A stretch of DNA of 64,000 nt from an uncultured Acidimicrobiia bacterium (lineage in GTDB: Bacteria; Actinomycetota; Acidimicrobiia; Spongiisociales; UBA4744), in the NCBI GenBank assembly GCA_964594235.1, contig CAZQMF010000004.1, positions 9,718 to 73,717 of the forward strand, in the 5' to 3' direction. Shown here piece after piece: positions 33,434 to 59,285 of this stretch (its first letter is position 1; every line of letters starts with the position of its first letter). The notes under the pieces were generated by a model. It saw nothing but the letters and a program-made list of their open reading frames with translations. It did no database searches and was not told where the DNA came from. The translations under genes and the position numbers were made by a program.

Positions 33434-34378
33434 GTGAGCAGAGTGGGTCTCATCCTCGGGGGTGGGGGCGTTACCGGCGCCTCGTTTCATCTTGCAGCAC
33501 TGCTCGCGCTCGAGATGGCGACGGGGTGGGATCCAACGGCAGCCGATGTCATCATCGGCACATCCGCCGGTTCGTTCGCGGCCGCGATCGTTCGTTCAGG
33601 CAGCCTATCGCTCGACAGCATCGTCCGTCCCGGAGAGCGAGAGGAGGACGTCGAGGCGCGGATCCGATCGTGGGTCTATAAGAAGAAGCCGCTCAACGGG
33701 GTCGGACGATGGATCCGCCGCGGCATCATCCCGAGTTTCCGGCATCCGGGACTCACCTCCTTGCTCGGTGTGCCCGGTCGATTCGACCCATCGGGCATCG
33801 GTGACTGGGTCGCCGCCCAGGCGCCTTCAATCGCAGACACCTGGCCGGACCGACCGACGGTCGTAGTTGCCTATGGTCTCGAGGATCGGCGCCGGACGGC
33901 CTTCGGAACTACCGACGCCCCTGATGTCACGCTGCGCGACGCAGTCTCGGCCTCATCTGCCGTCCCCGTGCTGTTCGATCCACACGTCATCAAAGGCAAG
34001 AGTTACGTCGACGGCGGTGTCGCTTCAGGAACCAACGCGGACCTCGTCCTCGGGAGTCCGGAACCACTCGATTTCCTCCTCGTCCTGGCCCCGATGGCAG
34101 CGGAGGCTCAGAGAAACGGTGCTCTCTTCTATGAAGCTCTGTTCGATCGCGTCGGGCGTTCTGCGCTCCACGACGAGCTTCAGGCGGTGGCGACCGTGTG
34201 GCCCGAGACCGACACCCTCGTCCTGAGACCGACACCGGCGGTTCTCGCAGCAATGCGTCCCAACCCGATGGACCCGGCGCGGGCGGTGCCAACGTTCGTT
34301 CGAACGCTCGCATCGCTCCGATCTCGCCTCGCAAGACCCGAGGTCTGGCAGGTTCTCGAGCGCTACCTCGTGACTTGA
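33434..34378 (+). CDS. patatin-like phospholipase
   Basis: LGGGGVTGA oxyanion motif, GTSAG (GxSxG nucleophile), VDGGV (catalytic Asp). Confidence 0.85.
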   Translation: MSRVGLILGGGGVTGASFHLAALLALEMATGWDPTAADVIIGTSAGSFAAAIVRSGSLSLDSIVRPGEREEDVEARIRSWVYKKKPLNGVGRWIRRGIIPSFRHPGLTSLLGVPGRFDPSGIGDWVAAQAPSIADTWPDRPTVVVAYGLEDRRRTAFGTTDAPDVTLRDAVSASSAVPVLFDPHVIKGKSYVDGGVASGTNADLVLGSPEPLDFLLVLAPMAAEAQRNGALFYEALFDRVGRSALHDELQAVATVWPETDTLVLRPTPAVLAAMRPNPMDPARAVPTFVRTLASLRSRLARPEVWQVLERYLVT

Positions 34379-35358
34379 GAGGTCTCCTCGAGCCATGTGG
34401 CACGCTGCTCTTCGGTAGCAAACGATGCTTCGATCGACGACCGCGCAATCGTCGCCACATCCATCTCCGTGAGACCGAGTGCCGACGCCGCCGCCACGTA
34501 GTTGTCCACGATGTATCCGCCGAAGTAGGCGGGGTCGTCGGAGTTGATCGTGACGACCGCACCCGCATCGATGAGACGCTTCAGATTGTGCTGGGCCAGT
34601 TCATCGACAACACGAAGCTTCACGTTCGACAGCGGACACATCGTGAGGGGTATCCGCTCCTTCACGACCCGCCGCAGCAACACCGGATCCTCCTCGACCC
34701 TCACGCCATGATCGATCCGTTCGGCGTGGAGCAGGTCCAATGCCTGCCGGATGTACTCGGGTGGGCCCTCTTCTCCCGCGTGGGCGACGACATGCAGTCC
34801 CTCCCGGCGCGCACGACGAAAGACCTCCTCGAACAACGATGGAGGACGACCCACCTCCGAAGAGTCGAGTCCGACGCCGATGATCTTCATGCGGTGGCGA
34901 AGGCCATCCTCGAGCGTTTGCTCCGCGGCTTCAGGGCTGAGATGGCGGAGGAACGACAGGATGAGGGCGGCTGACACGCCGAGATCCTCGGCATCCTCTA
35001 CTGCCCGGTGCAGTCCCGAGATTACGGCGTCAAAGGGGATCCCCCGAGTGGTGTGCGTCTGAGGATCGAAGAAGATCTCGGCTCTCTTGACGCCGTCTGA
35101 TGCAGCCCTGTTCAGGTACGCCCATGCGAGGTCGTAGAAGTCGCGTTCCGTCCGAAGAACCGCCGCCCCTTCGTAGTAGATGTCGAGGAATGACTGGAGA
35201 TCGGTGAATGCATAGGCGGCTCTGATCTCGTCGACCGTCTCGAAACGCAAGGCAACATCGTTTCGTTTGGCGAGCGTCACCATGAGCTCAGGCTCCAGCG
35301 ATCCCTCGATGTGGATGTGGAGTTCCGCTTTGGGAAGACTTCGAACGTAGGTTTCCAC
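34363..35358 (-). CDS. add: adenosine/adenine deaminase (Aah1/PA0148-like subgroup)
   Basis: Homology starts at VETYVRSLPKAELHIHIEGSLEPEL. GTG 35358. Motifs HAGE and INSDDPAYF. The upstream 210 codons of the listed ORF have no homology. Confidence 0.85.
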   Translation of the reverse strand: METYVRSLPKAELHIHIEGSLEPELMVTLAKRNDVALRFETVDEIRAAYAFTDLQSFLDIYYEGAAVLRTERDFYDLAWAYLNRAASDGVKRAEIFFDPQTHTTRGIPFDAVISGLHRAVEDAEDLGVSAALILSFLRHLSPEAAEQTLEDGLRHRMKIIGVGLDSSEVGRPPSLFEEVFRRARREGLHVVAHAGEEGPPEYIRQALDLLHAERIDHGVRVEEDPVLLRRVVKERIPLTMCPLSNVKLRVVDELAQHNLKRLIDAGAVVTINSDDPAYFGGYIVDNYVAAASALGLTEMDVATIARSSIEASFATEEQRATWLEETSQVTR

Positions 35359-35400
35359 TGCTGATCTACCTCGCCGGCTTTGAATCCGGAATCTTACCCA

Positions 35401-36765
35401 ATGGTCGGTAGCATCGTCACCGATGTGACCACGCTGCTTGTCAAACATGCGACCGTCCTCGTCACGATGGACGAATCCCGGAGAGAGATTCGCGATGCCG
35501 GTCTCTTCGCCAGGGACGGTTGGATCGAACAGGTCGCTCCAACGAAGGAACTCCCCTCCTCTGCCGATGTCGTCCTCGATCTGACGGATCATGTCGTCAT
35601 CCCCGGCCTGGTCAATACGCACCATCACCTGTACCAGACACTGACGAGAGCCTACGCCCAAGATGCGGAGCTCTTCGAATGGCTGACCACGTTGTATCCG
35701 GTGTGGGCAAAGCTCACACCTCATGACATCCGTGTCTCTGCGCGACTTGGACTGACGGAACTCGCACTGAGTGGATGCACCACCTCCTCGGATCACTTGT
35801 ACCTGTTCCCGAATGGTGCACGTCTCGACGACGAGATCCACGCGGCCAGCGAGGTCGGTATCAGGTTTCACGCCGCGAGGGGGTCGATGAGCCTCGGGCA
35901 GAGCGATGGCGGCCTCCCTCCGGATTCGGTAGTCGAAGACGAGCAAGCGATCCTCGACGACACCCGCAGGGTCATCGAATCCTTTCACGATTCAACACCG
36001 GGTTCGATGCTCCGGGTGGTCGTTGCTCCGTGCTCTCCGTTCTCGGTGACGCCGGACCTCATGAGGGAATCTGCAGCCCTTGCTCGCCACTACGGCGTCA
36101 CCCTCCACACACACCTCGCGGAGACGATCGATGAGGAGGCGTTCTGCGTGGATCGATTCGGCATGCCTCCGTTGGCGTATGCAGAGAGTGTCGGTTGGGT
36201 GGGACCCGACGTCTGGTTCGCCCACGCGGTCCACATGTCTGAAGCAGAAATCACTCGGATGGCCGACACCAACACCGGCGCGGCCCACTGTCCCGCCTCG
36301 AACATGCGGCTCGGATCCGGCATCGCTCCGGTTGCCGAGTATCGCGACGCAGGTGTTCGGATCGGCCTTGGCGTCGACGGGTCCGCTTCCAACGACGGCA
36401 ACGACCTCCTCGGCGAGGCGCGGCTCGCCACGCTCCTCGCCCGCGTTCGGCGGCGAGGAATCATGCCTGTGCGATCTGCACTCGAGCTCGCCACGCTCGG
36501 CGGCGCCGCCGTACTGGGACGCGACGATATCGGTGCCCTCGCCCCGGGGAAGACGGCCGACTTCGCCGCGTTCGATCTCAGAAGAATCGAATATGCCGGG
36601 GCGCAACATGATCCGGTCGCGGCCCTGCTTCTGTGTGCCCCCACCCGGGCGGTCTACACATACGTCCACGGTTCACCCGTCATCTCCAGCGGCCGTCCCG
36701 TCAACGTGGAGCTGGAAGCCCTCGTCGAAGAACACAATCGCGCTGCAGCTCGCCTCTTCGAGTAG
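35401..36765 (+). CDS. 8-oxoguanine deaminase-like amidohydrolase (ATZ/TRZ/SsnA superfamily)
   Basis: LLVKHATVLVTMD....PGLVNTHHHLYQTLTRA with the HxH metal site. Start is ATG 35401 or TTG 35380. Confidence 0.8.
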   Translation: MVGSIVTDVTTLLVKHATVLVTMDESRREIRDAGLFARDGWIEQVAPTKELPSSADVVLDLTDHVVIPGLVNTHHHLYQTLTRAYAQDAELFEWLTTLYPVWAKLTPHDIRVSARLGLTELALSGCTTSSDHLYLFPNGARLDDEIHAASEVGIRFHAARGSMSLGQSDGGLPPDSVVEDEQAILDDTRRVIESFHDSTPGSMLRVVVAPCSPFSVTPDLMRESAALARHYGVTLHTHLAETIDEEAFCVDRFGMPPLAYAESVGWVGPDVWFAHAVHMSEAEITRMADTNTGAAHCPASNMRLGSGIAPVAEYRDAGVRIGLGVDGSASNDGNDLLGEARLATLLARVRRRGIMPVRSALELATLGGAAVLGRDDIGALAPGKTADFAAFDLRRIEYAGAQHDPVAALLLCAPTRAVYTYVHGSPVISSGRPVNVELEALVEEHNRAAARLFE

Positions 36766-36837: not shown

Positions 36838-36839
36838 TG

Positions 36840-36868
36840 GAGATCGGGTAGCTGAGCTACCCGATCTC
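36840..36868. terminator. bidirectional terminator-like hairpin
   Basis: GAGATCGGGTAGC / GCTACCCGATCTC, a 12-13 bp perfect stem. The right arm contains the last codons and TAG of the Mo-subunit gene. Lies between convergent genes. Confidence 0.6.
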
Positions 36869-39067
36869 TGCAATGTCCTCCGGGTGAATGGGCAGTCGCG
36901 TCACCGGCTTGCCGGTCGCGGCGCGAACAGCGGACGCCACCGCGGCCGCCGAAGAGATCGACGGCAGCTCAGAGAACCCTTTGGCGCCGAACGGCCCCCA
37001 GGAACTCGGCTGTTCCACGACGACGGCCTCGACCGGAGGCATATCTTCGATCGTCGGCAGGAGGTAGTCGGTGAAGGTCGGGTTTCTTATGACACCGTTG
37101 TCGAGAATGACCTCTTCCATGAGCGCCATGCCGAATCCCTGCGCTATTCCACCCTCGATCTGTCCGATCACCTGCATGGGGTTGAGGGCCTTCCCGACGT
37201 CTTGAGCCGTGTCGATTCGGACCACGCGAACCAGACCAAGGACAGGGTCCACGTCGACGACCGCCCTGTGAGCGGCGACGCAGAAATCGACGTGCACGTC
37301 GCCTTGTCCGTTCTCGTCGGGTCCCTCGGTGGGCACATGCCGGTAGCGGATCTCGCCGACGATCGGCCCGTCGACGCACAGTTCCGGCCAGGTCGCGACG
37401 AGTCGACCATTTCGCCACACACCGTCGTCATCCATCTCGTCGCCGCCGACTCGTTCCAATGCGGCCGCACGAGCACGACGGGCGGCGTGTTCGACCGCAC
37501 CACCCGTCATCTGAGTCTGTCTCGAAGCCGAAGTTGAACCCGCGGAACCGATCTGTGAGGTGTCGTCCCAGACGATCTCGACCCGCTCCAAGCCCAGCAC
37601 GCTCCGTCCGATCTGGCCGAGGACGGTCACCATCCCTTGCCCCACTTCGGCCGCGGCCGTGTGCACCTTTGCACCCTCGGGTGTCAGCTCCACCCTGGCG
37701 TCCGCATAGTCGTCGAAGGCCTCGGAGAAGGCCAGGTTCTTCAGCCCGACCGCATACCCGACACCTCGCACGACTGCAGAGACGGGTGTCGTCAGTCCGG
37801 TCCCTCCCGGAAGTCGGTCGGTGTCCTCTTCGGGCAGCGGAATCGACATCACCGACCGAATGACTTCCTCTGTCGGAAGTGGGTCGACGATGCGCTGGCC
37901 CGTAGTCGAGAGCACATCGCCCGGACCGATGGCGTTCTTCAGACGGAGATCGAGAGGGTCCATCTCCAGGACGGCGGCCAGCCTGTCCATCTGGGCTTCG
38001 TACGCGAAACAGACCTGATTGGCGCCGAACCCCCGCATCGCTCCCGTGGGCGGGTTGTTGGTACGCACCGCATACCCTTCCACGAACACGTTGGGGCAGC
38101 GGTACGGCCCGGCGGCGAAGTACACCGCGTTCGCGATGACGGCCTCTGAGGTGTTCGCGTACGCTCCACCGTCCAGCACGAGCCTCGCCTCGACCCTGGT
38201 GAGCGTCCCATCGGCTTCGGCCTCGTGCCGGTACCACATGTGGGCGCTGTGCCGCTTGACGTGACCGACGAAGCTCTCGTCGCGCCCGTACACCATCTTG
38301 ACGGGTCGGCCCGTCCGCAGCGCGAGCATGCACAGGTGGGTGTGCAGGCTGAGGTCCTCTCTGGACCCGAACGCGCCACCGAGGCCGGTCGGGTGGACAC
38401 GAAGCTGGTCGGACTCGAGTCCGAGACACCGTACGAGCTGCTCATGGTCCACATGGATCCATTGCGATGGCGGGTAGAGGTCTACTCCACCCGAGCCGTC
38501 GGGAACGGCAAGCCCCGCTTCCGTGCCCAGTGGCGCCTGGTCGATGTTCGGGGTCTCGTAGTAGCCCTCGACGACGATTGGACCATGCGCGTCGGGATCG
38601 CCCCGCCTTACGGTCAGCTTTCTGAAAATACCGCCGTGTTCGACTGCTTCCTCGAGGTTCGTCGCTGGGGCCAGTTCTTCGAGCTCGACGGTGATCGCGG
38701 CGGCCGCAGCCCGGGCCTGGTCGCGCGTTTGTGCTGCAACCAACGCGACCGCCTCACCCCAGAAACGGACCTCACCCTCGGCGAGTACCGGCTGATCCTG
38801 AACGATCTGCCCCTGGTACTTGAATCCGGGCACGTCATCGACGGTGAGAACGGCAACGACACCGTCCATGTCGAGCGCAGGCGTGACATCTATCGAAGCG
38901 ATGCGGGCATGCGGCATATACGCCCTGCGAGTCGCCCCCCACAGCATGGTCTCCGCATGGAGATCCCCGACGTACTCGAACGCGCCCGAGGTCTTCGCTG
39001 CCCCGTCGGGCCGCCGAATCGATTCACCGACCCCTCCACGCACTCGACTCGATGTCCGGGTGGTCAT
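36857..39067 (-). CDS. xanthine dehydrogenase family, molybdopterin-binding subunit (system 1)
   Basis: 736 aa. a/b-hammerhead plus Mo-cofactor domains. GLGGAFGSRED and MRGFGANQ motifs. ATGA overlap with the Fe-S subunit gene. Confidence 0.9.
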   Translation of the reverse strand: MTTRTSSRVRGGVGESIRRPDGAAKTSGAFEYVGDLHAETMLWGATRRAYMPHARIASIDVTPALDMDGVVAVLTVDDVPGFKYQGQIVQDQPVLAEGEVRFWGEAVALVAAQTRDQARAAAAAITVELEELAPATNLEEAVEHGGIFRKLTVRRGDPDAHGPIVVEGYYETPNIDQAPLGTEAGLAVPDGSGGVDLYPPSQWIHVDHEQLVRCLGLESDQLRVHPTGLGGAFGSREDLSLHTHLCMLALRTGRPVKMVYGRDESFVGHVKRHSAHMWYRHEAEADGTLTRVEARLVLDGGAYANTSEAVIANAVYFAAGPYRCPNVFVEGYAVRTNNPPTGAMRGFGANQVCFAYEAQMDRLAAVLEMDPLDLRLKNAIGPGDVLSTTGQRIVDPLPTEEVIRSVMSIPLPEEDTDRLPGGTGLTTPVSAVVRGVGYAVGLKNLAFSEAFDDYADARVELTPEGAKVHTAAAEVGQGMVTVLGQIGRSVLGLERVEIVWDDTSQIGSAGSTSASRQTQMTGGAVEHAARRARAAALERVGGDEMDDDGVWRNGRLVATWPELCVDGPIVGEIRYRHVPTEGPDENGQGDVHVDFCVAAHRAVVDVDPVLGLVRVVRIDTAQDVGKALNPMQVIGQIEGGIAQGFGMALMEEVILDNGVIRNPTFTDYLLPTIEDMPPVEAVVVEQPSSWGPFGAKGFSELPSISSAAAVASAVRAATGKPVTRLPIHPEDIAEIG

Positions 39068-39507
39068 TCCACACTCCTGATGGCTCTCACGATGGATCCA
39101 TACCCGGTGCAGCGACAGATATTGCCGGCAAGAGCCTCACGGATCTTCCCCTCGGAGGGATCCGGGGTGTGCTCGAGGAGATGTGTTGCGGCAACGACGA
39201 TTCCTGGCGTGCAGTAGCCGCACTGGACGCCTCCCTCGGCGACGAGGGCCTCCTGCACGGGGGACAGTCCGTCTTCAGGGGTGAGCCCTTCCACGGTGAT
39301 GACCTCGGCGCCCTCGGCGTCGAGACCCATGACGAGGCACGAGCACACCGGTTCCCCGTCCATCAGGACGGTGCACGATCCGCACTCCCCCTGTTCACAT
39401 GCATCCTTGGTCCCCGTCAGTTCGAGGTTCTCACGCAGAACCCGCAGAAGGCTCTGCGTCCCGTCGACAGCCACTTCCGTCTCAATGCCGTTCAGTCGGA
39501 ATCTCAT
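39064..39507 (-). CDS. [2Fe-2S]-binding subunit (system 1)
   Basis: 147 aa. CEQGECGSC and CGYCTPG...CRCTGY cluster motifs. Confidence 0.9.
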   Translation of the reverse strand: MRFRLNGIETEVAVDGTQSLLRVLRENLELTGTKDACEQGECGSCTVLMDGEPVCSCLVMGLDAEGAEVITVEGLTPEDGLSPVQEALVAEGGVQCGYCTPGIVVAATHLLEHTPDPSEGKIREALAGNICRCTGYGSIVRAIRSVE

Positions 39508-40295
39508 AGCAACCGCTCCAGAGTCCGTCGCGCTATCACACCGACGCCGTGCCGCCGGTAGCGTGCGGTCGCCCGGTGATCGGTAATAGGCGACGCCTCT
39601 TCGGATACGAGTCGCTGGAATTCATCGAGCGCAGCCTCGCTCGGTGATCGTTCTGCAGAGATCATCTCTTCCGCCTGCCACGCTCTCACCACCGTTGGAG
39701 CAACCGAGCCGAGCGCGACACGAGTCCTCCCGTCGGCGAAACGTGCGAGGCAGACCGAGGCGATTGCGATGACCATGGCCGAACGAGTGCCGATTTTCGA
39801 GAACCCCTGCCGGTCGGGCATCTCGGATGGCAGCTTGACACCGACGATGAGTTCCCCGGGGAGCAAGGCCGTGCGTTTGACGCCGGTGAAAAACTCGTTC
39901 CATCGCAGCTCCCGCGAGCCGTTCACGGACCGCGTCACAATCGTTGCATCGACCGCTGCGAGGAATGGGAGCGCATCACCGGCAGGACTCGCCGTTCCGA
40001 TGTTCCCTCCTATGGTTCCCGCGCTCCGGATCTGGGGTGATCCAACGGTACGGGCTGCCTCGGCCAGTCCGGGCCACGGCGAGTGTTCGAGGCGTGCGTG
40101 GGTGACGCCGGCGCCGATCCAATCGTCTCGCATTTCGCGGAGCTCTTCGATTCGTCGCAATGCGACCACGTGGGTGGGGTGGAGGTGTCCGAAGTTGACC
40201 TCGACCATCAGGTCTGTTCCGCCTGCGAGGCACGTCGTGTCGCCATCGAGCACCCGCACCGCGTCGTCGATCGTTGTCGGAAACTCGATGTGCAC
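39504..40295 (-). CDS. FAD-binding subunit of molybdopterin dehydrogenase (system 1)
   Basis: AGGTDLMVE and GTIGGNIG motifs. The listed start is TTG 40343. GTG 40295 gives a typical N-terminus (VHIEFPTTIDDAVRVL) and leaves a 62-nt divergent spacer. Confidence 0.8.
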   Translation of the reverse strand: MHIEFPTTIDDAVRVLDGDTTCLAGGTDLMVEVNFGHLHPTHVVALRRIEELREMRDDWIGAGVTHARLEHSPWPGLAEAARTVGSPQIRSAGTIGGNIGTASPAGDALPFLAAVDATIVTRSVNGSRELRWNEFFTGVKRTALLPGELIVGVKLPSEMPDRQGFSKIGTRSAMVIAIASVCLARFADGRTRVALGSVAPTVVRAWQAEEMISAERSPSEAALDEFQRLVSEEASPITDHRATARYRRHGVGVIARRTLERLL

Positions 40296-40357: not shown

Positions 40358-41023
40358 ATGGACATCGATGCGATCCTTGCGCGGTGCGAGTCGGCTCTCG
40401 AAGGTTCCAACGCAGTTGACCTTTCAGGGTTGGGCTTCTGGAGGGTCGTTGCTCGGCTCAAGCGTGACCCGCAACTCGCTGCCCGCTACGGCAGTCGTGT
40501 TGCGAAGATCGACGAGAACGCGTTCTCTCGTTGGGCCTTTCTTCGGCTTCCCATCGGCGTCGGTATCGGTCTGATGGCGCTGTTCACCGTCGCGGGTCTC
40601 GCCGTGGTGTCGCTCGCCTACTACGTCGACGCTCCATGGAACGGCATCTGGGTGCTCATTGGCACGGGTGTACTCCTCGGTTCGACGCACACACTCGCGC
40701 ACTTCGTCGTAGGTCGAATCGTCGGTATTCGATTCACCCACTGGTTCATCGGGCGCACTCCCCAACCGGGCGTCAAGATCGACTATGTCAGCTACCTGGC
40801 CACGCCGCCACGTGCCCGGGCCTGGATGCACGCATCGGGGGCGCTGGCCACGAAACTGGTCCCGTTCCTCAACATCGGCGCCGCGTGGGGATCTCACTCT
40901 CCGGCATGGACGCTGTGGGTACTCCTGCTGCTCGGCCTCGTGATGATCGCGACGGACGTCTTTCTGTCGACGAAACAGTCGGACTGGAAGAAGTTCCGCC
41001 GAGAGATGCGCTACGCCTCCTGA
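40358..41023 (+). CDS. hypothetical polytopic membrane protein
   Basis: 221 aa. A soluble N-terminal region of about 70 aa, then about 5 hydrophobic helices. STHTLAHF (HxxxH). No family recognised. Confidence 0.5.
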   Translation: MDIDAILARCESALEGSNAVDLSGLGFWRVVARLKRDPQLAARYGSRVAKIDENAFSRWAFLRLPIGVGIGLMALFTVAGLAVVSLAYYVDAPWNGIWVLIGTGVLLGSTHTLAHFVVGRIVGIRFTHWFIGRTPQPGVKIDYVSYLATPPRARAWMHASGALATKLVPFLNIGAAWGSHSPAWTLWVLLLLGLVMIATDVFLSTKQSDWKKFRREMRYAS

Positions 41024-41128: not shown

Positions 41129-41152
41129 GGGCCCGCTCGCGGACCCTACATC
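41123..41152. terminator. terminator-like hairpin spanning the Zn-ADH stop
   Basis: 9-bp stem GATGTAGGG / CCCTACATC plus inner GC pairs. Lies between convergent genes. Confidence 0.45.
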
Positions 41153-47847: not shown

Positions 47848-47952
47848 TCTCCTTTCGAGGAATGGTCCAAGCCTATCGCTTCCCGCACCCCTCCCATCCG
47901 TTTCGGACGACGACCACCGAGGCCGGCCTCAACCCTCTATGCTTGCCCGAAC

Positions 47953-48542
47953 GTGGAGGGTAGGAAGCCGACCAACCTGAGGCTGCTGTCGCTCGCCGGA
48001 GGCCTCTTCCCTGTCATCGCGGTCCTCGGCGCGCTTCTGGTCGGCGCCATCATGCTGCTCATCCTGGGAGCAGATCCCCTCGAGGGCTTCCGTTCGCGAA
48101 GCGCGGGTTTCTCGATTTTGCGGCGATCGAGGAGCACTGCGACCAGCTCATCGCCGATTTCAACGTGAAGACGCCGTCGCAGAAGACACTGCTGAGCGCG
48201 ATGTCGGGCGGCAATATCCAGAAGGCAATTTTCGCCCGGGAGTTGTCAGGCAACCCGAAAGTACTCATCGCAGCACAGCCGACACGTGGCGTCGACATCG
48301 GGGCCACCGAGTACATCCATCGGCGACTCCTCGACCAACGGTTCATCCACGAGAAGCTCCTCGATCAACGCAAGGCCGGGACCGCAACGCTGCTGATCTC
48401 CGAAGACCTCGACGAGATCCTCATCCTTGCCGATCGAATCGCGGTCATCTATGAGGGCCGGATCATGGGCATCGTCAACCACGCCGACGCCACGATCGAA
48501 CAACTCGGCCTGATGATGGCAGGCGTGGAAGCAGACAGCTGA
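47953..48542 (+). pseudogene. relic of a BMP/nucleoside-type ABC transporter (permease N-terminus joined to ATPase C-terminus)
   Basis: 47953 to about 48092 encodes a permease-like N-terminus ([29 protein letters not shown]). From about 48100, in another frame, there is an ATPase C-terminal fragment ([23 protein letters not shown]...MSGGNIQK...LLISEDLDEI). No Walker A and no permease body. Confidence 0.6.
48312..48371 (+). repeat. imperfect 30-bp tandem duplication inside the ABC ATPase relic
   Basis: TACATCCATCGGCGACTCCTCGACCAACGG is followed by TTCATCCACGAGAAGCTCCTCGATCAACGC, encoding [10 protein letters not shown] / [10 protein letters not shown]. Confidence 0.7.
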
Positions 48543-52025: not shown

Positions 52026-53048
52026 TCACAGCCGGGCGTGGAGTCGCTTCGCTTGCTCTCGAGCTCTCGCCCGGATCTCCTGCGCGTCGACCTTCGTCGG
52101 GCTGCCATTCTGGAACACGACCTCGCCGTCCATCTCGACCTTCAGGGGCCGGACACCAGGGGTGAACGCCAGGTGCCAAGGGTCCATCGGTTCGTATGAC
52201 CACGTCACCTCGTCCTCGAGCGCCTCGGGCGCGAGGTTCCATCCTTCCTCCAGCCACCTCCAGGCTGTCTCAGGCGATGCGGTCACGTCGACAGACCGAT
52301 GCATCACGTAGGCAAGACGGAACGACTCGACCATCGCGGCGCCTATCCCGTCCGTGCCGAGCGCCACGGGGTTGTCGAATCGCACCGGGTTCGCGTACCC
52401 GACGGCGTTGTTCAGGTTGGACCGAGGGTTGTGCACGACCGTGCCACGGAGTTCGTGGTCGGTCGGCAGATGCACGGCGTGGATCAGCAACCAGTCGTCG
52501 GTCGTGAGCCCTTGGAGCTTGAATGTGGCGTCTCTGTCGATTTCGCCTTCTGCGACATGGACGTGGACACCGACCCTCATATCGTTGGCGAGTCCGGCAG
52601 CGGCCTCCAGGCTCCCGTCAGTGCAGGTGAACGCTGCGTGGATCCCAACGAGCCCGTTGCCACCTGCTTTGATGAACCGTTCGTTCTCCGCGAGTCCCCT
52701 CAGGGCCCCTTCGTGCCCGTGCCGGTCCGTGATCCCGTAGGCACAGACGACTCGCACGCCGACCTCGGCACAGGCATCTGCGATCACCGACAGGCTCCCT
52801 TCGATCGCGTTCGGCGACTCGTTGTGATCGATGATGACGGTGGTTCCCTGTTCGAGCGCCTCGAGTGCGCCGAGTTTGGCCGACCACTCGAGCATCTCGA
52901 GGTCGAGAGCAGTGTCGAGCCTCCACCACACCTGCTCGAGAATCTCGAGGAAGTTGGTCGGGGTAGCCGGCGGCGCCGGCATGCCTCGTGCGAGTGTCGA
53001 ATACAGGTGGTGATGTGCGCACACCATGCCAGGGGTCGTCGATGCCAT
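52026..53048 (-). CDS. ssnA: SsnA-like amidohydrolase lacking the usual N-terminal beta-sandwich segment
   Basis: 340 aa. Starts at MASTTPGMVCAHHHLYS, with the HxH site at residues 11-13. VWWRLDTALD, HNPRSNLNNAVGY and LGTDGIGAAM match my recollection of E. coli SsnA. AGGAGG lies 4 nt before the ATG. Confidence 0.8.
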   Translation of the reverse strand: MASTTPGMVCAHHHLYSTLARGMPAPPATPTNFLEILEQVWWRLDTALDLEMLEWSAKLGALEALEQGTTVIIDHNESPNAIEGSLSVIADACAEVGVRVVCAYGITDRHGHEGALRGLAENERFIKAGGNGLVGIHAAFTCTDGSLEAAAGLANDMRVGVHVHVAEGEIDRDATFKLQGLTTDDWLLIHAVHLPTDHELRGTVVHNPRSNLNNAVGYANPVRFDNPVALGTDGIGAAMVESFRLAYVMHRSVDVTASPETAWRWLEEGWNLAPEALEDEVTWSYEPMDPWHLAFTPGVRPLKVEMDGEVVFQNGSPTKVDAQEIRARAREQAKRLHARL

Positions 53049-53067: not shown

Positions 53068-55617
53068 CTACCCGCTGGGTGCCAGCGGAAGCGTCTTCCT
53101 CCAGAACCCGTCTCTGTCGTGCATTGCTGCAGCGACCGCCGGCGCGGTCGGGACCAGCCCGATCTCCCCGACGCCCTTCACGCCGTACGGGGCGTTCGGT
53201 TGAGGCACCTCGATGATGATGACGTCAACGGGGGGCATGTCCTTGGCACGCAGAATGCCGAAGCTGCGGAACGTCATGTTGGTGGGCCGTCCTGAGTCGT
53301 CGACAGGGAAGTCCTCGGAAAGCGCGTACCCGAGCCCCATGTGGACGGCACCTTCGATCTGACCTTCAACGAGCGTCGGATTCACCGCCTTACCGACGTC
53401 GTGTGCCGCGACGACCCGCTCGATTTCGCCCGTTTCGCGATCCATGATGACCACCTGCGCGGCATATCCGAACGCGGAGTGAATGGTCGGATGCTCGACA
53501 CCGGACTCGAGCGAGTCAGTCCAGTCGATGACATACTGGCCGAGGTGATCCACACCCACCGTTCTGCCTGCCTCGATGGCGTTCCGGCAGGCGTCTTGGA
53601 TTGCCCCCGCGCCGAGCAGCGTCCCACGGGAACCGGTCGTCTGTCCGTCCCCCAGCTCCCTCGTGGTGTCGACGATCACGCGGACGCGTGCCGTGTCGAC
53701 ACCGAGCTCCTCGGCGACGACCTGCTGCGCGACAGTGTGGACGCCTTGGCCCATCTCGGTCCAGCAGTGACGGACTTCGACAGTGCCGTCCTCTTCGAAC
53801 CGAACGACCGCCCTCGACTCCTCCTTGTACCCGTTGCCGAGGCCGGTGTTCTTCAGCGCGAGTCCGAGTCCCACCGCCTTGCCTTCCGATCGGGCGGCGT
53901 CGTACACGCTCTTGACGGCGGCCAGGCACTCCGAGGCTCCTCTGCAGCCGTCGTCCATGATCTGCCCAGGGCCCCACTCGACGCCGGGGGTGATGACGTT
54001 GCGTGCTCTGATCTCCCAGCCGGAGATGCCGACGAGCTCCGCCAACCGATCGAGGGTCCCTTCCATCGCGAATTGTGCCTGGTTGGCGCCGAACCCTCGG
54101 AACGCGCCACACACCGGGTTGTTGGTTCGCACCGCGATCGACTCGACGTCGACGTTGGGAACGACGTACGGACCAGTCGCGTGCCCCGCGGCACGTTCGA
54201 GCACTTTCATGCCGACGGAGGCGTATGGACCGGAGTCACCGACGAGACGCGCCCTCACTGCAGTCAGCCTGCCGTCCTCGTCGCACCCCACCGCGTACTC
54301 GAGACGGATGGGATGGCGTTTGGCGTGCATCAAGAGCGACTGTTCCCTGGTGAGCGTGCACTTGACGGGTCGGCGGAGCAGCCACGCAGCCAGTGCCGTT
54401 TGGCCCTGGTTGGACATGTCCTCTTTGCCTCCAAACGCTCCCCCGTTCGAAACGAGCTCGACCGTGACCGCGTCGTTCGGTGCGGCGAGCAACGCGGCGA
54501 TCTGATCGCGGTCATCCCATACGCCTTGGCCGCCCGAGTAGACGTGGAGTCTGCCGCTCGGCGCGGGCACGGCAAGGGTCGACTCCGGTTCGAGGAACGC
54601 GTGCTCGACCCGTTGGGTCGTGAAGATCTCGTTGATCGTGTGACTGCTCGATGCGAGCGCGGAGTCGACGTCACCGCGCTGGTACGTGGAGCGCGACAAG
54701 ATGTTGCCATCGAGCCCCCACACGGCATCCTCGTCCGATGCAAGAGCCTTCTCGGCGTCCGTGAACGGTGCAAGTGGGCGATAGTCGACAGCTATCAGCT
54801 CGGCGGCCCGAAGGGCCGTTTCCCGACGTTCGGCGACGACGATTGCGAGCACATCGCCGAGATAGGAGGTGCGCCCTCCTTCCGGGATGAAGACGGGCCA
54901 GTCCTTGTCGATCAACCCGACGCGGAGCGTTCCCGGCACATCCTTGGCGGTGAACACAGCAGTGACCCCGGCAACCGCTTTCGCGGCGCTGGTGTCGATA
55001 CCAAGGACATCTGCGCGAGCGTGGTCGGCGAGGCGCAGTGCTGCGTGAAGCATCCCATCGACCTTCAGATCATCGACGTACCCTCTAGTGCCGAGAGCCA
55101 ACTCTCTCGCCTCGTACTTGACGCCGGTGGAACCGACGCCGCCAGGCGACGCGACTTCGATCCGATCGCCGTGGGCGACAGCCTCGATGGCGGCGAAGAC
55201 CTTGAGGTAGCCGGTGCAACGGCAGAGGTTCGCTCCGAGGTGGCGCCGGAGATCGTTGCGCGTGAGCTCACGACCTTTCTTGTCGATCAGAGCCTTCGAT
55301 CGCATGATGATGCCCGGCGTGCAGAACCCGCACTGGGTGGCACCGTATGCAGCGAACGCGTCGGCGAAACGATCGCGCTCCTCGTCGGACAGTCCTTCCA
55401 GGGTGGTGATGGTCGTGCCTTCGGCTCTGTCGACGTCCATCTGGCACGACACGCGAGCCTTGCCGTCGACGAGGATCGTGCAGGCACCGCACTGGCCAGA
55501 GGGTGAGCAGCCATCCTTCGGTGAAGTGACACCGAGCTCTTCACGGAGTGCTGCCAGAAGATGGGGATGGTGGTCGTGTACCTCGACGGGCGTGCCATTG
55601 AGGTCGAAACGAGTCAT
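53068..55617 (-). CDS. xdhD: XdhD-like fused [2Fe-2S]/molybdopterin-binding hydroxylase (system 2)
   Basis: N-terminal CSPSGQCGAC, CGFCTPG and CRCTGY, followed by hammerhead and Mo-cofactor domains in one polypeptide. ATG 55617 (MTRFDLNGTPV) is preferred over the listed GTG 55626. Confidence 0.85.
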   Translation of the reverse strand: MTRFDLNGTPVEVHDHHPHLLAALREELGVTSPKDGCSPSGQCGACTILVDGKARVSCQMDVDRAEGTTITTLEGLSDEERDRFADAFAAYGATQCGFCTPGIIMRSKALIDKKGRELTRNDLRRHLGANLCRCTGYLKVFAAIEAVAHGDRIEVASPGGVGSTGVKYEARELALGTRGYVDDLKVDGMLHAALRLADHARADVLGIDTSAAKAVAGVTAVFTAKDVPGTLRVGLIDKDWPVFIPEGGRTSYLGDVLAIVVAERRETALRAAELIAVDYRPLAPFTDAEKALASDEDAVWGLDGNILSRSTYQRGDVDSALASSSHTINEIFTTQRVEHAFLEPESTLAVPAPSGRLHVYSGGQGVWDDRDQIAALLAAPNDAVTVELVSNGGAFGGKEDMSNQGQTALAAWLLRRPVKCTLTREQSLLMHAKRHPIRLEYAVGCDEDGRLTAVRARLVGDSGPYASVGMKVLERAAGHATGPYVVPNVDVESIAVRTNNPVCGAFRGFGANQAQFAMEGTLDRLAELVGISGWEIRARNVITPGVEWGPGQIMDDGCRGASECLAAVKSVYDAARSEGKAVGLGLALKNTGLGNGYKEESRAVVRFEEDGTVEVRHCWTEMGQGVHTVAQQVVAEELGVDTARVRVIVDTTRELGDGQTTGSRGTLLGAGAIQDACRNAIEAGRTVGVDHLGQYVIDWTDSLESGVEHPTIHSAFGYAAQVVIMDRETGEIERVVAAHDVGKAVNPTLVEGQIEGAVHMGLGYALSEDFPVDDSGRPTNMTFRSFGILRAKDMPPVDVIIIEVPQPNAPYGVKGVGEIGLVPTAPAVAAAMHDRDGFWRKTLPLAPSG

Positions 55618-55620
55618 CGG

Positions 55621-55642
55621 CCACACCTTACGCGCCGTGTGG
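55621..55642. promoter_or_regulatory. inverted repeat CCACAC-N10-GTGTGG in the divergent control region
   Basis: Lies in the 92-nt spacer between the xdhD-like gene and the FAD-subunit gene, and overlaps the SD-like AAGGTG of the xdhD-like gene. Function unknown. Confidence 0.25.
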
Positions 55643-55709: not shown

Positions 55710-56525
55710 ATGATCACCGAGTACGTGCACTCCGACTCCGTCGAAGAAGCCTACGGGCTCCTGACGTCACTCGGGTCCAGGGCACGCCTCATGGGTGGTG
55801 GAACCGACCTCTCTCTCCACCCTCCCACGGAGGTCGATACGCTCATCGACCTCTCACGAGCGTCACTCGGCGGAATCAGTCGCGACGATGGGGCCATCAC
55901 GATCGGCGCTACGGCGACGTTGACGGAGATGCTCGAGTATGAGCCGCTCGGCAGTGTGTGGTCGGGCGTCGTGCACGCCATGCTCCGGCGTGTTGCATCT
56001 CCACTCCACCGGAACGCTGCCTCGATCGGAGGCCATCTCGCGAGGGGACGCCTCTCAGACGTGGTCCCCGTCATGCTCGCGATCGACGCGTCGGTGCGGT
56101 TCTATGACGGTGCACCGAGACAGATGCCACTCGGCGAGTTCTATGCGACGAGACGCAACCGACGGCCGCTGGTGGTGACCGGTGTTGAGATCCCTGTCGA
56201 TGGAGGCAGGGCCGCGTTCCGGAAGTTCGCCCGCACCACGTATGACCTGGCGATCCTCAATGTGGCATGCGGCGTTCGCTTCGAAGATGCCGTCGTTTCG
56301 TCTGCCAGGATCGTCGTCGGGGAGCGACCTAGCCTCGCCGTGGAACTCGGGGACGCGTCGGAGGTCCTGGTCGGTCAACCCTTCGACGAAGCCTCGATCG
56401 TGCGGGCGGCCCGCGTCGCGAGGGACACCGTCGACGTTCGCTCCGATCCACGGGGAAGCGCCGAGTATCGCCGCCACCTCACCGAGGTGCTCGTTCGTCG
56501 TTGTCTCTTGGAGGTCACACCATGA
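55710..56525 (+). CDS. FAD-binding subunit of molybdopterin dehydrogenase (YgfM-like, system 3 and possibly shared with system 2)
   Basis: 271 aa. GGGTDL and ASIGGHL motifs. The stop overlaps the next start (ATGA). Confidence 0.85.
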   Translation: MITEYVHSDSVEEAYGLLTSLGSRARLMGGGTDLSLHPPTEVDTLIDLSRASLGGISRDDGAITIGATATLTEMLEYEPLGSVWSGVVHAMLRRVASPLHRNAASIGGHLARGRLSDVVPVMLAIDASVRFYDGAPRQMPLGEFYATRRNRRPLVVTGVEIPVDGGRAAFRKFARTTYDLAILNVACGVRFEDAVVSSARIVVGERPSLAVELGDASEVLVGQPFDEASIVRAARVARDTVDVRSDPRGSAEYRRHLTEVLVRRCLLEVTP

Positions 56526-56989
56526 ACCTCACGGTCAATGGTGCCGCGTTCGATGTGGAGGTCAAAGCTTCCGAGAGCCTGCTGGATCTTTTGCGGCGGC
56601 TCGGGTTCAAGGGTGTGAAGAACGGCTGCGACAACGGAGATTGCGGGGCATGCGCCGTGCTGATCGACGGGAGGGCTGTCACGTCGTGTGACTATCCGGC
56701 CCCGGCCGCGGCGGACACCAGCATCCTGACCGTGGAAGGTCTCGGAACCGAGGGTGAGCTACACCCGATTCAAGCTGCGTTCCTCGACGCTGGTGGGGTC
56801 CAGTGCGGCTTCTGTACCCCCGGGATGCTGATCAGCGCCTACGAGTTGCTGAACCGCGTCTCGGAGCCCTCCGAAGACGAGATACGCGAGGCGTTGCGCG
56901 GGAATCTGTGCCGCTGTACGGGCTATGTGAAGCCGGTGGAAGCCATCAGCATCGCCGCGGCGAGGATGCGGGAGGCGACCGGTGGCTGA
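56522..56989 (+). CDS. [2Fe-2S]-binding subunit (system 3)
   Basis: MNLTVNG start 7 nt after GGAGG (the listed TTG 56501 is less likely). CDNGDCGAC, CGFCTPG, CRCTGY. Confidence 0.9.
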   Translation: MNLTVNGAAFDVEVKASESLLDLLRRLGFKGVKNGCDNGDCGACAVLIDGRAVTSCDYPAPAAADTSILTVEGLGTEGELHPIQAAFLDAGGVQCGFCTPGMLISAYELLNRVSEPSEDEIREALRGNLCRCTGYVKPVEAISIAAARMREATGG

Positions 56990-59285
56990 TCAGTTCGTCG
57001 TCGTCGGCCAAAGCGAACGTCGTGTGGATGGGCGAGCGCTGGTAACGGGGAAACCCGTGTTCACCGGTGATCTCGACCTCCCCGGCATGCTGCATCTCGC
57101 GATGCTCGGCTCGCCACATGCACACGCACGAATCACATCCATCTCGACGGAACGTGCAGAAGAGCTCGAAGGGGTGGAGCTCGTGCTGACGCACGTGAAC
57201 ACACCAACGGTCCGCTACACGACCGCGGGACAGGGTCACCCGGAGCCGTCCCCGTACGACTCGCGGATGTTCGATCCGAAGGTCCGCTTCGTCGGGGATC
57301 GGGTAGCCGTCGTCGCTGCCACGTCGAAGGAGATCGCAGAACACGCGCTCGAACTGATCGAGGTCGAGTACGAACCGCTGACGCCCGTCCTGTCGATCGA
57401 CGACGCGCTCGCCGAGGGAGCCCCGGTCATCCACGACGAGACGGACGCATCGGGGATATGGGATGCCGAACACAACATCGCAGGAGTGGTCGAAGCCGAC
57501 GTAGGCGACGTCGACGCGGCGATCGAGTCTGCGTTCGCGAGCGTCGAGTTCACGGGAGAAACCCAGTACGCACAGCATGTCCCGCTCGAACCACACGTAT
57601 CGGTGGCCTACCTCGATGACAACGGGCGGCTGGTGCTCTACACGAGCACGCAGGTCCCCTTCCACGTGCGCCGGATCATCGCACGTGTCCTCGACATCCC
57701 GGCCGGGCAGATCAGGGTCATCAAGCCTCGCATCGGCGGCGGCTTCGGCGTCAAGCAGGAGATCCTCATCGAAGACCTCGTCGGACTCGTCACCTACCGG
57801 ACCGGGCGGCCGTGCAAGCTCGAGTACACGCGAGCCGAGGAGTTCTATGCGTCCCGCACGCGGCACCCGATGCGGGTGACCGTCCGGCTGGGTGCCGACG
57901 AAGACGGCCGTTTGACGGCAGTGCACATGAACGCACTCGAAAACACCGGCGCGTACGGAGCCCACAACCTGACGGTCGTGTCCAACGCAGGCTCCAAGAC
58001 GCTCCCGATGTACAACAAGGCGCCGAATGTCAGGTTCACCGCAAAGGGCATCTACACGAATCTGCCTGTCGGCGGCGCCTACCGGGGATACGGCGCAACC
58101 CAGGGGATCTTCCCGCTCGAAGTCGGTATCGACATGCTCGCCGAGAAACTCGGGATGGACCCACTCGAGCTTCGACGCCTCAATCACATCCGATCCGGCG
58201 AGACCAGCCCGATCTTCGAAGAACTCGGTGAAGGTCGCAAGGGTGTGCCCCAAACGATCGGAAGCTGTGGCCTCGAACGATGCATCGACATCGGGGCCGA
58301 GCGGATCGGCTGGGCCGCCAAGCGTGGCACACGCCTCCGTGAGGGTCCTTGGGTGCACGGCATCGGCATGTCCATCCACATGCAGGGCTCGGGAATCCCT
58401 GCGATCGACATGGCTGCCGCCACGATCAAGATGAACGATGACGGGTCGTTCAACCTCCTGATCGGAGCCACCGACCTCGGCACCGGTTCGGACACCGTCC
58501 TCGCGCAGATGGCCGCCGAGGTTCTCGGCGTCACGCTCGACGACATCATCGTGCTCTCCTCCGACACCGACGTGACTCCGTTCGATGTCGGCGCGTATGC
58601 GTCCTCGACCACCTACGTCTCGGGGTCTGCCGTGGTGCGAGCCGCGACCGATGTGAAGGGCCAGATCACGGCGGTCGCGGCAGCGATGCTCAGAGTCGAT
58701 GCCGATGAGCTCGAGCTCGGTGACGGAAGGGTCATCGCCGAGGATGGTCGAAGCGTCACGTTGGCGGACGTCGCGCTGCGGTCGTTGTACGGGGTGGATC
58801 AGTTCCAGATCGGGGCCACGGCATCGTTCGTCGGTGATGTCTCTCCCCCACCATTCCTCGCGTCGTTCGCGGAGATCGCCATCGACACCGAGACCGGTGA
58901 ACTGAGGATCGTCGACTACGTCGCAGCCGTGGACTGCGGAACAGCGATCAACCCGCGTCTCGCCGAAGGGCAGGCCGAGGGAGCACTCGCGAACGGGATC
59001 GGCTATGCCCTGATGGAGGAGATGCGGTTCGACACGTACGGCCGGATGCGCAACCCCGACCTGGGTCGGTACAAGATTCCCGCTGCCACCGACATGCCTC
59101 CGTTGGAGGTCATCCTCGTGGATACGTACGAGGAGACAGGCCCGATGGGTGCCAAGTCGATCGCAGAGATCGGCATCAATGCCCCGATCCCGACGCTGGC
59201 GAACGCCATCTACGACGCTATCGGTGTCCGATTGACGCATCCTCCGTTCACGTCAGAGAAGATCTGGCGAGCGATGCAGGGCTGA
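56982..59285 (+). CDS. xanthine dehydrogenase family molybdopterin-binding subunit (system 3)
   Basis: 767 aa. IGGGFGVKQE and YRGYGATQG motifs. The GTG start follows GGGAGG and overlaps the Fe-S gene by 8 nt. Confidence 0.9.
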   Translation: MADQFVVVGQSERRVDGRALVTGKPVFTGDLDLPGMLHLAMLGSPHAHARITSISTERAEELEGVELVLTHVNTPTVRYTTAGQGHPEPSPYDSRMFDPKVRFVGDRVAVVAATSKEIAEHALELIEVEYEPLTPVLSIDDALAEGAPVIHDETDASGIWDAEHNIAGVVEADVGDVDAAIESAFASVEFTGETQYAQHVPLEPHVSVAYLDDNGRLVLYTSTQVPFHVRRIIARVLDIPAGQIRVIKPRIGGGFGVKQEILIEDLVGLVTYRTGRPCKLEYTRAEEFYASRTRHPMRVTVRLGADEDGRLTAVHMNALENTGAYGAHNLTVVSNAGSKTLPMYNKAPNVRFTAKGIYTNLPVGGAYRGYGATQGIFPLEVGIDMLAEKLGMDPLELRRLNHIRSGETSPIFEELGEGRKGVPQTIGSCGLERCIDIGAERIGWAAKRGTRLREGPWVHGIGMSIHMQGSGIPAIDMAAATIKMNDDGSFNLLIGATDLGTGSDTVLAQMAAEVLGVTLDDIIVLSSDTDVTPFDVGAYASSTTYVSGSAVVRAATDVKGQITAVAAAMLRVDADELELGDGRVIAEDGRSVTLADVALRSLYGVDQFQIGATASFVGDVSPPPFLASFAEIAIDTETGELRIVDYVAAVDCGTAINPRLAEGQAEGALANGIGYALMEEMRFDTYGRMRNPDLGRYKIPAATDMPPLEVILVDTYEETGPMGAKSIAEIGINAPIPTLANAIYDAIGVRLTHPPFTSEKIWRAMQG

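Follow-up and report, generated by a model that had tools for sequence, protein, structure and literature searches.

Positions 34363-59285 of the window analysed here, a 64-kb stretch of a contig from an uncultured Acidimicrobiia bacterium, form a densely packed purine-breakdown island between a patatin gene (33434-34378) and a nicotinate phosphoribosyltransferase gene (NAPRTase; 59289-61277, -). On homology and synteny we read this island as a functional mosaic that would lead from purines to pyruvate by a variant of the reductive 2,8-dioxopurine pathway, and we put the probability of this reading at roughly three in four. An earlier note on this DNA had proposed a reductive, carbamoyl-phosphate-yielding route in place of the classical oxidative one. 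The gene content fits the pathway published in 2025, so that the proposal was correct in substance, but the concept was already known. What the sequence adds are three candidates: a pair of pyridoxal phosphate (PLP) enzymes replacing YgeX, a possible double phosphorolysis yielding two ATP, and the coexistence of two types of urate reductase.

Reductive degradation of urate by way of 2,8-dioxopurine was demonstrated biochemically for E. coli and Clostridium in 2025 (bioRxiv 10.1101/2025.05.19.654654 = PMC12507026; bioRxiv 10.1101/2025.04.24.650524). Urate is converted to 2,8-dioxopurine by XdhD-YgfM in E. coli or by XdhAC/DOPDH in C. sporogenes, YgfK reduces 2,8-dioxopurine, and SsnA then opens the pyrimidine ring to give ureidomethylhydantoin. 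HyuA yields 2,3-diureidopropionate, from which YgeW frees carbamoyl phosphate that is made into ATP by the carbamate kinase YqeA; the second ureido group is taken off by YgeY, and diaminopropionate is converted to pyruvate by YgeX (PMC12507026; 10.1101/2025.04.24.650524). Both Clostridium molybdenum enzymes require YqeB, YqeC and SelD according to the 2025 literature.

In the island, an adenosine deaminase and an 8-oxoguanine-type deaminase would feed the oxopurine pool, and a PucCDE-like xanthine dehydrogenase would oxidise hypoxanthine and xanthine to urate. Urate would be reductively dehydroxylated at C6 to 2,8-dioxopurine by one of two non-orthologous candidates, either a fused FeS-Mo protein co-transcribed with SsnA and YgfK or a divergently transcribed three-subunit enzyme of the XdhD/YgfM type. 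YgfK would then reduce the ring and a minimal SsnA would open it hydrolytically; the hydantoin opening predicted to follow is without a gene in the window. An aspartate transcarbamoylase (ATC)-like and an ornithine transcarbamoylase (OTC)-like enzyme are predicted to phosphorolyse the ureido groups of 2,3-diureidopropionate, and carbamate kinase would turn carbamoyl phosphate and ADP into ATP. Finally, 2,3-diaminopropionate would yield pyruvate and ammonia through a fold-type-II PLP pair in place of YgeX. The substrates named here are all predictions.

The island was mapped by Pfam and NCBIfam profile searches, including TIGR and NF models read against their cutoffs, and by inspection of start codons. 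The profile scans covered the large open reading frames (ORFs), and the E. coli pathway proteins were run by tblastn against the whole 64-kb window. Comparison loci, labelled L001, L002 and so on, are related loci including metagenome stretches; L001 is a relative with 86-88% nucleotide identity. Every gene that the earlier note had listed for the region was recovered by profile search. The list was incomplete, however, in that it had passed over the two PLP enzymes (42143-43612 and 43609-44838) and a Zn-dependent alcohol dehydrogenase (41146-42141). The features of the island, with profile scores in bits, are as follows.

34363-35358 (-): adenosine deaminase, 331 amino acids (aa), GTG start; NF006850 516 bits, cutoff 419; PF00962; orthologue in L025
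35401-36765 (+): 8-oxoguanine-deaminase-type amidohydrolase; NF006055 678 bits, cutoff 532
36857-40295 (-): hydroxylase 1, PucCDE-like; FAD subunit 39504-40295, 2Fe-2S subunit 39064-39507, Mo subunit 36857-39067
40358-41023 (+): 221-aa hydrophobic protein without a Pfam or NCBIfam match
41146-42141 (-): Zn-dependent alcohol dehydrogenase family protein; TIGR02822 387 bits, cutoff 283
42143-43612 (-): PLP489, CysK/TrpB-like fold-type-II PLP protein; PF00291 only
43609-44838 (-): PLP409, threonine-synthase-like PLP protein; NF006050 294 bits, cutoff 303
44835-45788 (-): carbamate kinase, YqeA equivalent; NF009007 377 bits, cutoff 266; 48% identity to E. coli YqeA
45815-46789 (-): OTC-like carbamoyltransferase; below every NCBIfam cutoff
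46888-47847 (-): ATC-like carbamoyltransferase; TIGR00670 253 bits, cutoff 237
47938-48542 (+): remnant of a Bmp-type ABC importer; 5' stub of a permease and C-terminal fragment of an ATPase (48165-48542)
48569-52012 (-): YgfK; TIGR03315 907 bits, cutoff 835
52026-53048 (-): mini-SsnA, 340 aa; SsnA profile positions 58-346
53068-55626 (-): fused 2Fe-2S/Mo hydroxylase, 852 aa; TIGR03311 843 bits, cutoff 830
55710-59285 (+): hydroxylase 3 (system 3); FAD subunit 55710-56525, 2Fe-2S subunit 56501-56989, Mo subunit 56982-59285

YgfK, the fused hydroxylase, carbamate kinase and both deaminases exceed the equivalog cutoffs of their NCBIfam models. These family assignments, like the synteny, the conservation and the purifying selection described below, were observed directly. 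The ratio of nonsynonymous to synonymous substitution rates (dN/dS) against orthologues was 0.02-0.21 for all 18 island genes; all of them evolve under purifying selection, and the island is intact. The sole intergenic gap of more than 125 bp is the 722-bp ABC remnant, and therefore no room is left in the island for missed genes.

The two candidate urate reductases are best seen against hydroxylase 1, which could be the obvious urate-forming dehydrogenase. Its scores are 731 bits against the PucD model TIGR03196 (cutoff 784) and 182 bits against PucE, and in the alignment it carries the equivalents of bovine Gln767, Glu802, Arg880 and Glu1261. We take the purine-site positions to be those of the bovine and R. 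capsulatus literature. The triad of that site (Glu802, Arg880 and Glu1261 equivalents) is present in hydroxylase 1 and in the fused protein; at the same positions hydroxylase 3 has Gln/Arg/Glu and EcXdhD has Gln/Gln/Glu. System 3 was the best match of both EcXdhD and EcYgfM in tblastn, the Mo subunit reaching 41% identity and 562 bits to EcXdhD and the YgfM counterpart 28% identity. Against TIGR03313 it scores 666 bits, which is below the equivalog cutoff. System 3 and EcXdhD share a Thr that replaces bovine Gln767 and a 'GEG(K/R)' loop containing Glu606, the residue of EcXdhD singled out for substrate orientation by Li et al. 2025 (PMC12507026). The closest solved structure is 4-hydroxybenzoyl-CoA reductase, which is itself a reductive dehydroxylase.

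The label XdhD-like, given to the fused protein in the earlier note, holds for its architecture and not for its sequence family: identity to EcXdhD is 26%, the protein belongs to TIGR03311, and it has no FAD or ferredoxin partner gene. Its Mo domain begins at aa 308 of 852, the Mo domains of C. sporogenes DOPDH span aa 307-839 (Liu et al. 2025; bioRxiv 10.1101/2025.04.24.650524), and the gene table of the urate degrader E. faecalis lists only one fused Mo enzyme in the urate cluster. We therefore regard the fused protein as the Clostridium-type candidate. The C. sporogenes XdhAC family was placed indirectly in this comparison, from the domain boundaries given by Liu et al., from one locus of gut Firmicutes and from the gene table of E. 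faecalis. That Firmicutes locus, L026 (44% GC, gut-type), reads SsnA, YgfK, fused enzyme, ferredoxin, XdhABC, YqeB, YqeC, MocA, followed by carbamate kinase, YgeW and YgeY. Its 860-aa fused protein, located after SsnA-YgfK, is 42% identical (605 bits) to the one in the window, whereas its identity to EcXdhD is only 25%. This relative, which came from a search of 1.8 billion representatives, is very abundant and stands for a cluster of 5380 members.

The fused protein lies directly upstream of SsnA-YgfK in 9 other loci. SsnA-YgfK occur with the fused type alone in L006, L009 and L011, with the E. coli type alone, plus YgfM, YqeB and YqeC, in L010, L013 and L018, and with both types in the window and in L001, L003-5 and L016. 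Functionally equivalent enzymes would be expected to alternate in this way. The island would thus hold both non-orthologous candidate types, the Clostridium-type fused enzyme and a split enzyme of the E. coli XdhD/YgfM type, side by side, and would offer a natural system for asking why one reaction has two solutions.

YgfK is 34% identical to EcYgfK, with an alignment over residues 1-1008. The adjacent SsnA is shorter. SsnA is its best family, with 255 and 242 bits against cutoffs of 444 and 455; the scores fall short because ~55 N-terminal residues and internal segments are missing. It aligns to EcSsnA residues 56-438 with 32% identity, without the N-terminal beta-sandwich segment, and retains all metal ligands (HxH, His, His, Asp). 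The ATG is preceded by an AGGAGG ribosome-binding site and stands immediately before the HxH motif. The same form, full length (1-340) and together with YgfK, was found in 12 of the 12 Acidimicrobiia-type loci that have the gene, and dN/dS was 0.05-0.07. A pseudogene was considered and rejected on the strength of the ribosome-binding site and start codon, the retention in 12 loci and the dN/dS values; comparison of the sequences points instead to a lineage-specific minimal form. In Acidobacteriota metagenome-assembled genomes (L007, L008, L012, L017), YgfK relatives occur with canonical YgeW (47-59% to E. coli), YgeY-like M20 peptidases (30-32%), HyuA and carbamate kinase, and in L007 a second, truncated YgfK-like paralogue lies directly downstream.

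For the lower half of the pathway, the earlier note had named a YgeW-like protein. This too was right for the architecture and not for the sequence family, as there are two carbamoyltransferases and neither reaches a YgeW model cutoff. The OTC-like protein scored 264 bits against OTC (cutoff 306), 253 against N-acetylornithine carbamoyltransferase (AOTC; cutoff 288) and 175 and 172 against the YgeW models (cutoffs 453 and 500). It is 36% identical to EcYgeW, with 'KPLSVPQ' and 'KSW' common to both; genuine orthologues of YgeW at other loci share 56-71% identity with the YgeW of E. coli or of the Firmicutes locus L026. It has no ornithine-binding DxxxSMG ('AKSWGAM' stands there) and has HPLP in place of HCLP. 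The best PDB match is P. furiosus OTC, and the closest solved structures are archaeal OTC and AOTC.

In the ATC-like protein, whose best PDB match is P. abyssi ATCase, the carbamoyl-phosphate site is kept (STRTR, R105, HPTQ, HxLPR). The 80s (K84) loop reads 'AGDFYQE', without a Lys, and 'TRVQ' (Arg229) has become 'EPVVQ..TKGR' with an insertion of 8 residues. We take Lys84 and the Arg229 of 'TRVQ' to be the ligands of the aspartate side-chain carboxylate, as in E. coli ATCase, and their loss is invariant in 9 orthologues. A housekeeping pyrB was considered for this gene and rejected on account of the missing aspartate ligands, the catabolic operon context and the co-transfer with the module described next. 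2,3-Diureidopropionate is isosteric with N-carbamoylaspartate, a ureido group replacing the carboxylate, and albizziin is a short analogue of citrulline. By this analogy, 2,3-diureidopropionate and albizziin are plausible substrates of the two carbamoyltransferases.

Together with carbamate kinase, PLP409 and PLP489, the ATC-like and OTC-like genes form a five-gene module. It adjoins SsnA or YgfK in the window and in L001, L002, L006, L014, L015, L025 and L093; in L015, module and SsnA-YgfK are seven genes on one strand behind a GntR/UTRA regulator. PLP409 finds ThrC in the PDB (E 7e-50) and has an 'SFKDR' lysine motif and an N-terminal Zn ribbon, CxxC...CPxH. The best PDB match of PLP489 is CysK (E 4e-15), and its lysine motif 'PTG(A/S)HKVGAA' resembles the 'HTGAHK' of TrpB. 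In a Foldseek search of the PDB, the AlphaFold2 (AF2) model of PLP489, with a mean confidence (pLDDT) of 74.8, found generic CysK, beta-cyanoalanine synthase and CBS folds at a template modelling (TM) score of ~0.75 to the targets, a match compatible with lyase and synthase alike. The terminal extensions, ~85 aa at the N terminus and ~100 helical aa at the C terminus, were neither of them matched structurally. Between Acidimicrobiia, Chloroflexota and many metagenomes, members of the PLP489 family share 67-78% identity; they occur in at least 586 metagenome stretches and are labelled merely 'cysteine synthase' in the sources.

The gene context of the pair was taken from 80 metagenome loci anchored on PLP489, 42 of which have at least 8 kb of flank. 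PLP409 lies directly upstream of PLP489 in 53 of the 80, and this nearly constant adjacency suggests a two-protein enzyme or two steps. Further pathway genes were found near PLP489 in 33 of the 42 (carbamate kinase 19, OTC-like or YgeW 19, HyuA 14, ATC-like 12, Mo subunit of the xanthine dehydrogenase (XDH) family 11, SsnA 4, YgfK 2), and YgeX was found alongside it in 0 of the 80. L087, which reads PLP409, PLP489, YgeY (72% to E. coli), carbamate kinase, fused Mo enzyme, SsnA and YgeW (71% to L026), is a canonical urate cluster with the PLP pair in the position of YgeX. In the window itself, YgeX matches PLP409 only, with 28% identity over 124 residues, and the NF006058 score is 49 bits (cutoff 276). 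We therefore propose the PLP pair, from its sequence and position, as a candidate replacement for YgeX. One further island, L030 (JABAOH010069209.1, 1099-18828), comprises NAPRT, system 3, ATC-like, OTC-like, PLP409, PLP489, Zn alcohol dehydrogenase, system 1 (hydroxylase 1) and 8-oxoguanine deaminase; it has the same flanks and is without the fused enzyme, SsnA, YgfK, the ABC operon and carbamate kinase. This gene content indicates that the island was assembled from exchangeable modules.

Several observations weigh against the proposed pathway. Four of the eight canonical enzymes, HyuA, YgeW, YgeY and YgeX, have no orthologue in the 64 kb. By tblastn, E. coli HyuA, YgeY, YqeB, YqeC, MocA, XanQ, UacT and YgeV gave no match in the window, and for HyuA there was no match at E <=1e-3 in the 64 kb or in any of the Acidimicrobiia-type loci compared. 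The opening of the hydantoin/dihydropyrimidine ring is thus without a candidate gene in the 64 kb, though HyuA joins the PLP pair in 14 other loci; the step after SsnA is either encoded elsewhere or done by an unrecognised enzyme. The fused protein retains the Glu802/Arg880 pair typical of xanthine dehydrogenases and therefore could make urate instead of consuming it. YqeB, YqeC and SelD are absent from the 64 kb and from +/-10 kb around the close relatives, and no uptake system survives in the island. Lastly, in L021, L023 and L024 the five-gene module follows a GntR regulator by itself, and no urate gene lies within 10 kb of it; L005, syntenic in other respects, lacks the module through a clean 5.8-kb indel. 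The module therefore could serve another ureido compound.

This last point leads to the alternative that only the upper half, that is the Mo enzymes, YgfK and SsnA, belongs to urate catabolism. The module would then be a separate pathway that gains ATP from a different ureido amino acid, and the true HyuA, YgeW, YgeY and YgeX functions would be encoded elsewhere. Besides the self-contained GntR-regulated operons and the L005 indel, the fact that neither carbamoyltransferase is a YgeW orthologue speaks for it. We nevertheless consider it unlikely: SsnA, YgfK, XDH-family, HyuA, YgeY or YgeW genes lie near the module or the PLP pair in 33 of 42 loci, L015 joins module and SsnA-YgfK in a single block of seven same-strand genes, and YgeX is beside the PLP pair in none of 80 loci. 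We regard as very improbable the idea that at least one of the three hydroxylases acts on non-purine N-heterocycles, system 3 for instance on nicotinate, and that to speak of three purine hydroxylases overstates the case. NAPRTase is indeed a conserved neighbour of system 3 (L001, L003, L004, L005, L030), systems 1 and 3 are below their equivalog cutoffs, and the closest solved structure to system 3 acts on 4-hydroxybenzoyl-CoA. Yet system 3 scores 562 bits with EcXdhD against only 230 bits with nicotinate dehydrogenase and has the XdhD-specific active-site features, fused orthologues of it sit with YgfM, YqeBC, YgfK and SsnA in L013 and L018, and the NAPRTase gene is convergent and lies at the island border.

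The losses could also mark the whole island as a decaying, non-functional remnant from which the transporter, the regulator, the genes for the selenium cofactor and half of the canonical enzymes have disappeared. The Bmp-type importer has been removed by a 4.09-kb deletion, no regulator or riboswitch lies inside the island, and HyuA, YgeY, YgeX, YqeB and YqeC are absent from the window. However, none of the 18 remaining genes is shortened relative to its orthologues, and all have the low dN/dS given above; the short SsnA begins at a start codon behind a ribosome-binding site of its own and is kept in 12 loci; and close relatives with an intact transporter (L025) carry the same enzyme set. We regard decay as very improbable. 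The earlier note's decayed ABC relic is a nonfunctional importer remnant, as described there, and it reflects one clean deletion rather than general decay. In blastn against L001, the window lacks L001 14076-18168 and is joined at window positions ~48086-48090, which we read as one recent deletion. It fuses the permease 5' stub to the 3' end of the ATPase, whose last ~125 codons match positions 390-510 of CUT2-type ATPases; the intact operon of L025 reads permease, permease, Bmp-family binding protein, ATPase. Bmp-type ABC importers are known for nucleoside and purine uptake.

Two further statements of the earlier note concern genes that are not there. Its absence of uricase, allantoinase, allantoicase, XdhC/CoxI and SelD was borne out by the Pfam and NCBIfam scans of the large ORFs in the window, and neither YqeB, YqeC, SelD nor any gene for molybdenum cofactor (Moco) synthesis nor any working transporter was found within the 64 kb. 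Reportedly, Haft & Self 2008 described a selenium-dependent molybdenum hydroxylase system with YqeB, YqeC and SelD as accessory markers; YqeB and YqeC adjoin the E. coli-type XdhD in L010, L013 and L018. The absence of a transcription factor holds inside 34363-59285, where profile scans found no regulator, but an OmpR-type response regulator and a histidine kinase sit 2.4 kb past its end, beyond NAPRTase, at 61694-63792 (+), and this regulator is 97% identical in L001. Rfam searches, at the gathering threshold for the whole window and at E <=1 for 34-62 kb, returned no riboswitch, so that the missing regulator is not made up for by a purine or Moco riboswitch. A promoter and terminator scan of 40-59.5 kb gave fewer sites than shuffled sequence and is uninformative in such high-GC DNA.

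Among the feeder enzymes, the 8-oxoguanine deaminase would convert 8-oxoguanine to urate, judging from its sequence family. Orthologues with 63-64% identity adjoin XdhD/YgfM, YqeBC, YgfK and SsnA in L013 and L018. The protein was also considered for the missing hydantoinase; this was rejected for want of any support, as it scores well above its own equivalog cutoff. In L010, L013 and L018, which are Acidimicrobiia and one bin labelled Kiloniellales, yqeC and yqeB adjoin a fused E. coli-type XdhD with YgfM downstream of SsnA-YgfK; the Clostridium-type fused enzyme is absent from these loci, and the 8-oxoguanine deaminase orthologue is adjacent in L013 and L018. The one unassigned membrane protein of the earlier note (40358-41023) has 221 aa, at least two hydrophobic segments, an 'HTLAH' motif and no family match. 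With a dN/dS of 0.16-0.21 it is nonetheless a real gene, and it always travels with the Zn alcohol dehydrogenase and hydroxylase 1 (L005, L025, L028). The alcohol dehydrogenase stays with hydroxylase 1 in L005, too, which lacks the five-gene module.

Mechanical ORF calls in the window carry long false N-terminal extensions, of 210 aa for adenosine deaminase (34363-35988, -), ~345 aa for EF-G (22736-25810, +) and ~150 aa for NAPRTase (59289-61277, -), and the Mo subunits are overlain by long antisense ORFs. Artefacts of both kinds are typical of high-GC DNA and able to mislead a reading by eye. Accordingly, the 541-aa ORF at 34363-35988 (-) was rejected as the 331-aa deaminase plus a spurious extension, the opposite strand there holding the 8-oxoguanine deaminase, and the 225-aa ORF at 35992-36669 (-) as an antisense artefact of the 8-oxoguanine deaminase gene. 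The first 34 kb of the window are Actinomycetota housekeeping DNA (AspRS, HisRS, RelA, SecDF, Tgt, QueA, RuvAB, YebC, PdxST, EF-G, citrate synthase, ThrRS). Three consecutive ORFs there, at 5110-6543 (-), 6543-7094 (-) and 7091-9025 (-), with 477, 183 and 644 aa, lie between an MBL-fold hydrolase and relA; none has an NCBIfam match, and the 644-aa ORF, the sole one scanned against Pfam, has no Pfam match.

Beyond the variant 2,8-dioxopurine pathway itself, a wider combination of claims is offered tentatively, and as a whole we think it rather doubtful. Acidimicrobiia and many environmental bacteria might run a re-tooled lower half, in which an obligate ThrC-like plus CysK/TrpB-like pair replaces YgeX. 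An aspartate-blind ATC-like and an ornithine-blind OTC-like enzyme, unrelated to YgeW, might phosphorolyse both ureido groups and give two ATP per urate, not one. The minimal SsnA, or an unrecognised enzyme, might make HyuA dispensable, and an NAD(P)H-linked E. coli-type and an FAD-less Clostridium-type urate reductase, both kept by one cell, might allow different electron donors.

The reductive urate pathway, solved in 2025, is reportedly characteristic of anaerobes, obligate or facultative, from the gut and elsewhere; the island would place it in free-living, high-GC Acidimicrobiia from environmental metagenomes. A literature search combining Acidimicrobiia with pathway terms returned nothing specific. 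The known chemistry of the pathway is not overturned. Its lower half appears modular, and urate fermentation would yield twice the energy if the hydrolysis done by YgeY has been taken over by the second carbamoyltransferase. As the PLP pair is widespread in the place of YgeX, surveys that score orthologues of HyuA, YgeW, YgeY and YgeX will miss these organisms. Published surveys count 'YgeX' by Pfam PF00291 and 'YgeW' by PF00185 (PMC12507026), and these criteria would lump the PLP pair and the OTC-like protein with canonical YgeX and YgeW.

Among known systems, B. subtilis PucABCDE with its uricase/allantoin route resembles the island in one enzyme: hydroxylase 1 is closest to PucD and PucE and has the purine-site triad, although it stays below the equivalog cutoffs. 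The PucA/XdhC-type maturation gene, uricase, allantoinase and the allantoate-degrading genes of that route are lacking in the window. With the arginine and agmatine deiminase pathways the island would share an OTC-family phosphorolysis of a ureido group coupled to ATP through an adjacent carbamate kinase. It differs in having no deiminase, in one kinase serving two transferases, and in an OTC-like protein without ornithine motifs and an ATC-like protein without aspartate side-chain ligands. PLP409 and PLP489 belong to the same Pfam family, PF00291, as YgeX, the 2,3-diaminopropionate ammonia-lyase, and take the same position in urate clusters, but they are not orthologous to it, and PLP489 is CysK/TrpB-like.

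The ygeW-xdhD region of E. coli is similar in YgfK (34%), the SsnA-like protein (32%), carbamate kinase (48%), the XdhD/YgfM-type Mo enzyme (41% / 28%) and the presence of a deaminase in the cluster, and it follows the same logic of urate reduction, ring opening and carbamoyl phosphate harvest. Unlike that region, the window has no HyuA, YgeW, YgeY, YgeX, YqeB, YqeC, MocA, YgeV or XanQ/UacT permeases. The counterpart of E. coli XdhD is split into FeS and Mo subunits and keeps an equivalent of Arg880, which EcXdhD is without; SsnA is without ~55 N-terminal residues, and two non-YgeW carbamoyltransferases and the PLP pair stand in the lower half. The Firmicutes urate cluster (C. sporogenes XdhAC/DOPDH; E. 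faecalis EF_2563-2582; L026) differs in its ferredoxin after the fused enzyme and in YqeB, YqeC, MocA, YgeY and a true YgeW (66% to E. coli), none of which is present here, and its separate dehydrogenase is of the XdhABC type, whereas that of the island is PucCDE-like. Common to both are a fused 2Fe-2S/Mo protein of ~850 aa that adjoins SsnA-YgfK, with 42% identity, a separate three-subunit xanthine dehydrogenase and a carbamate kinase in the cluster.

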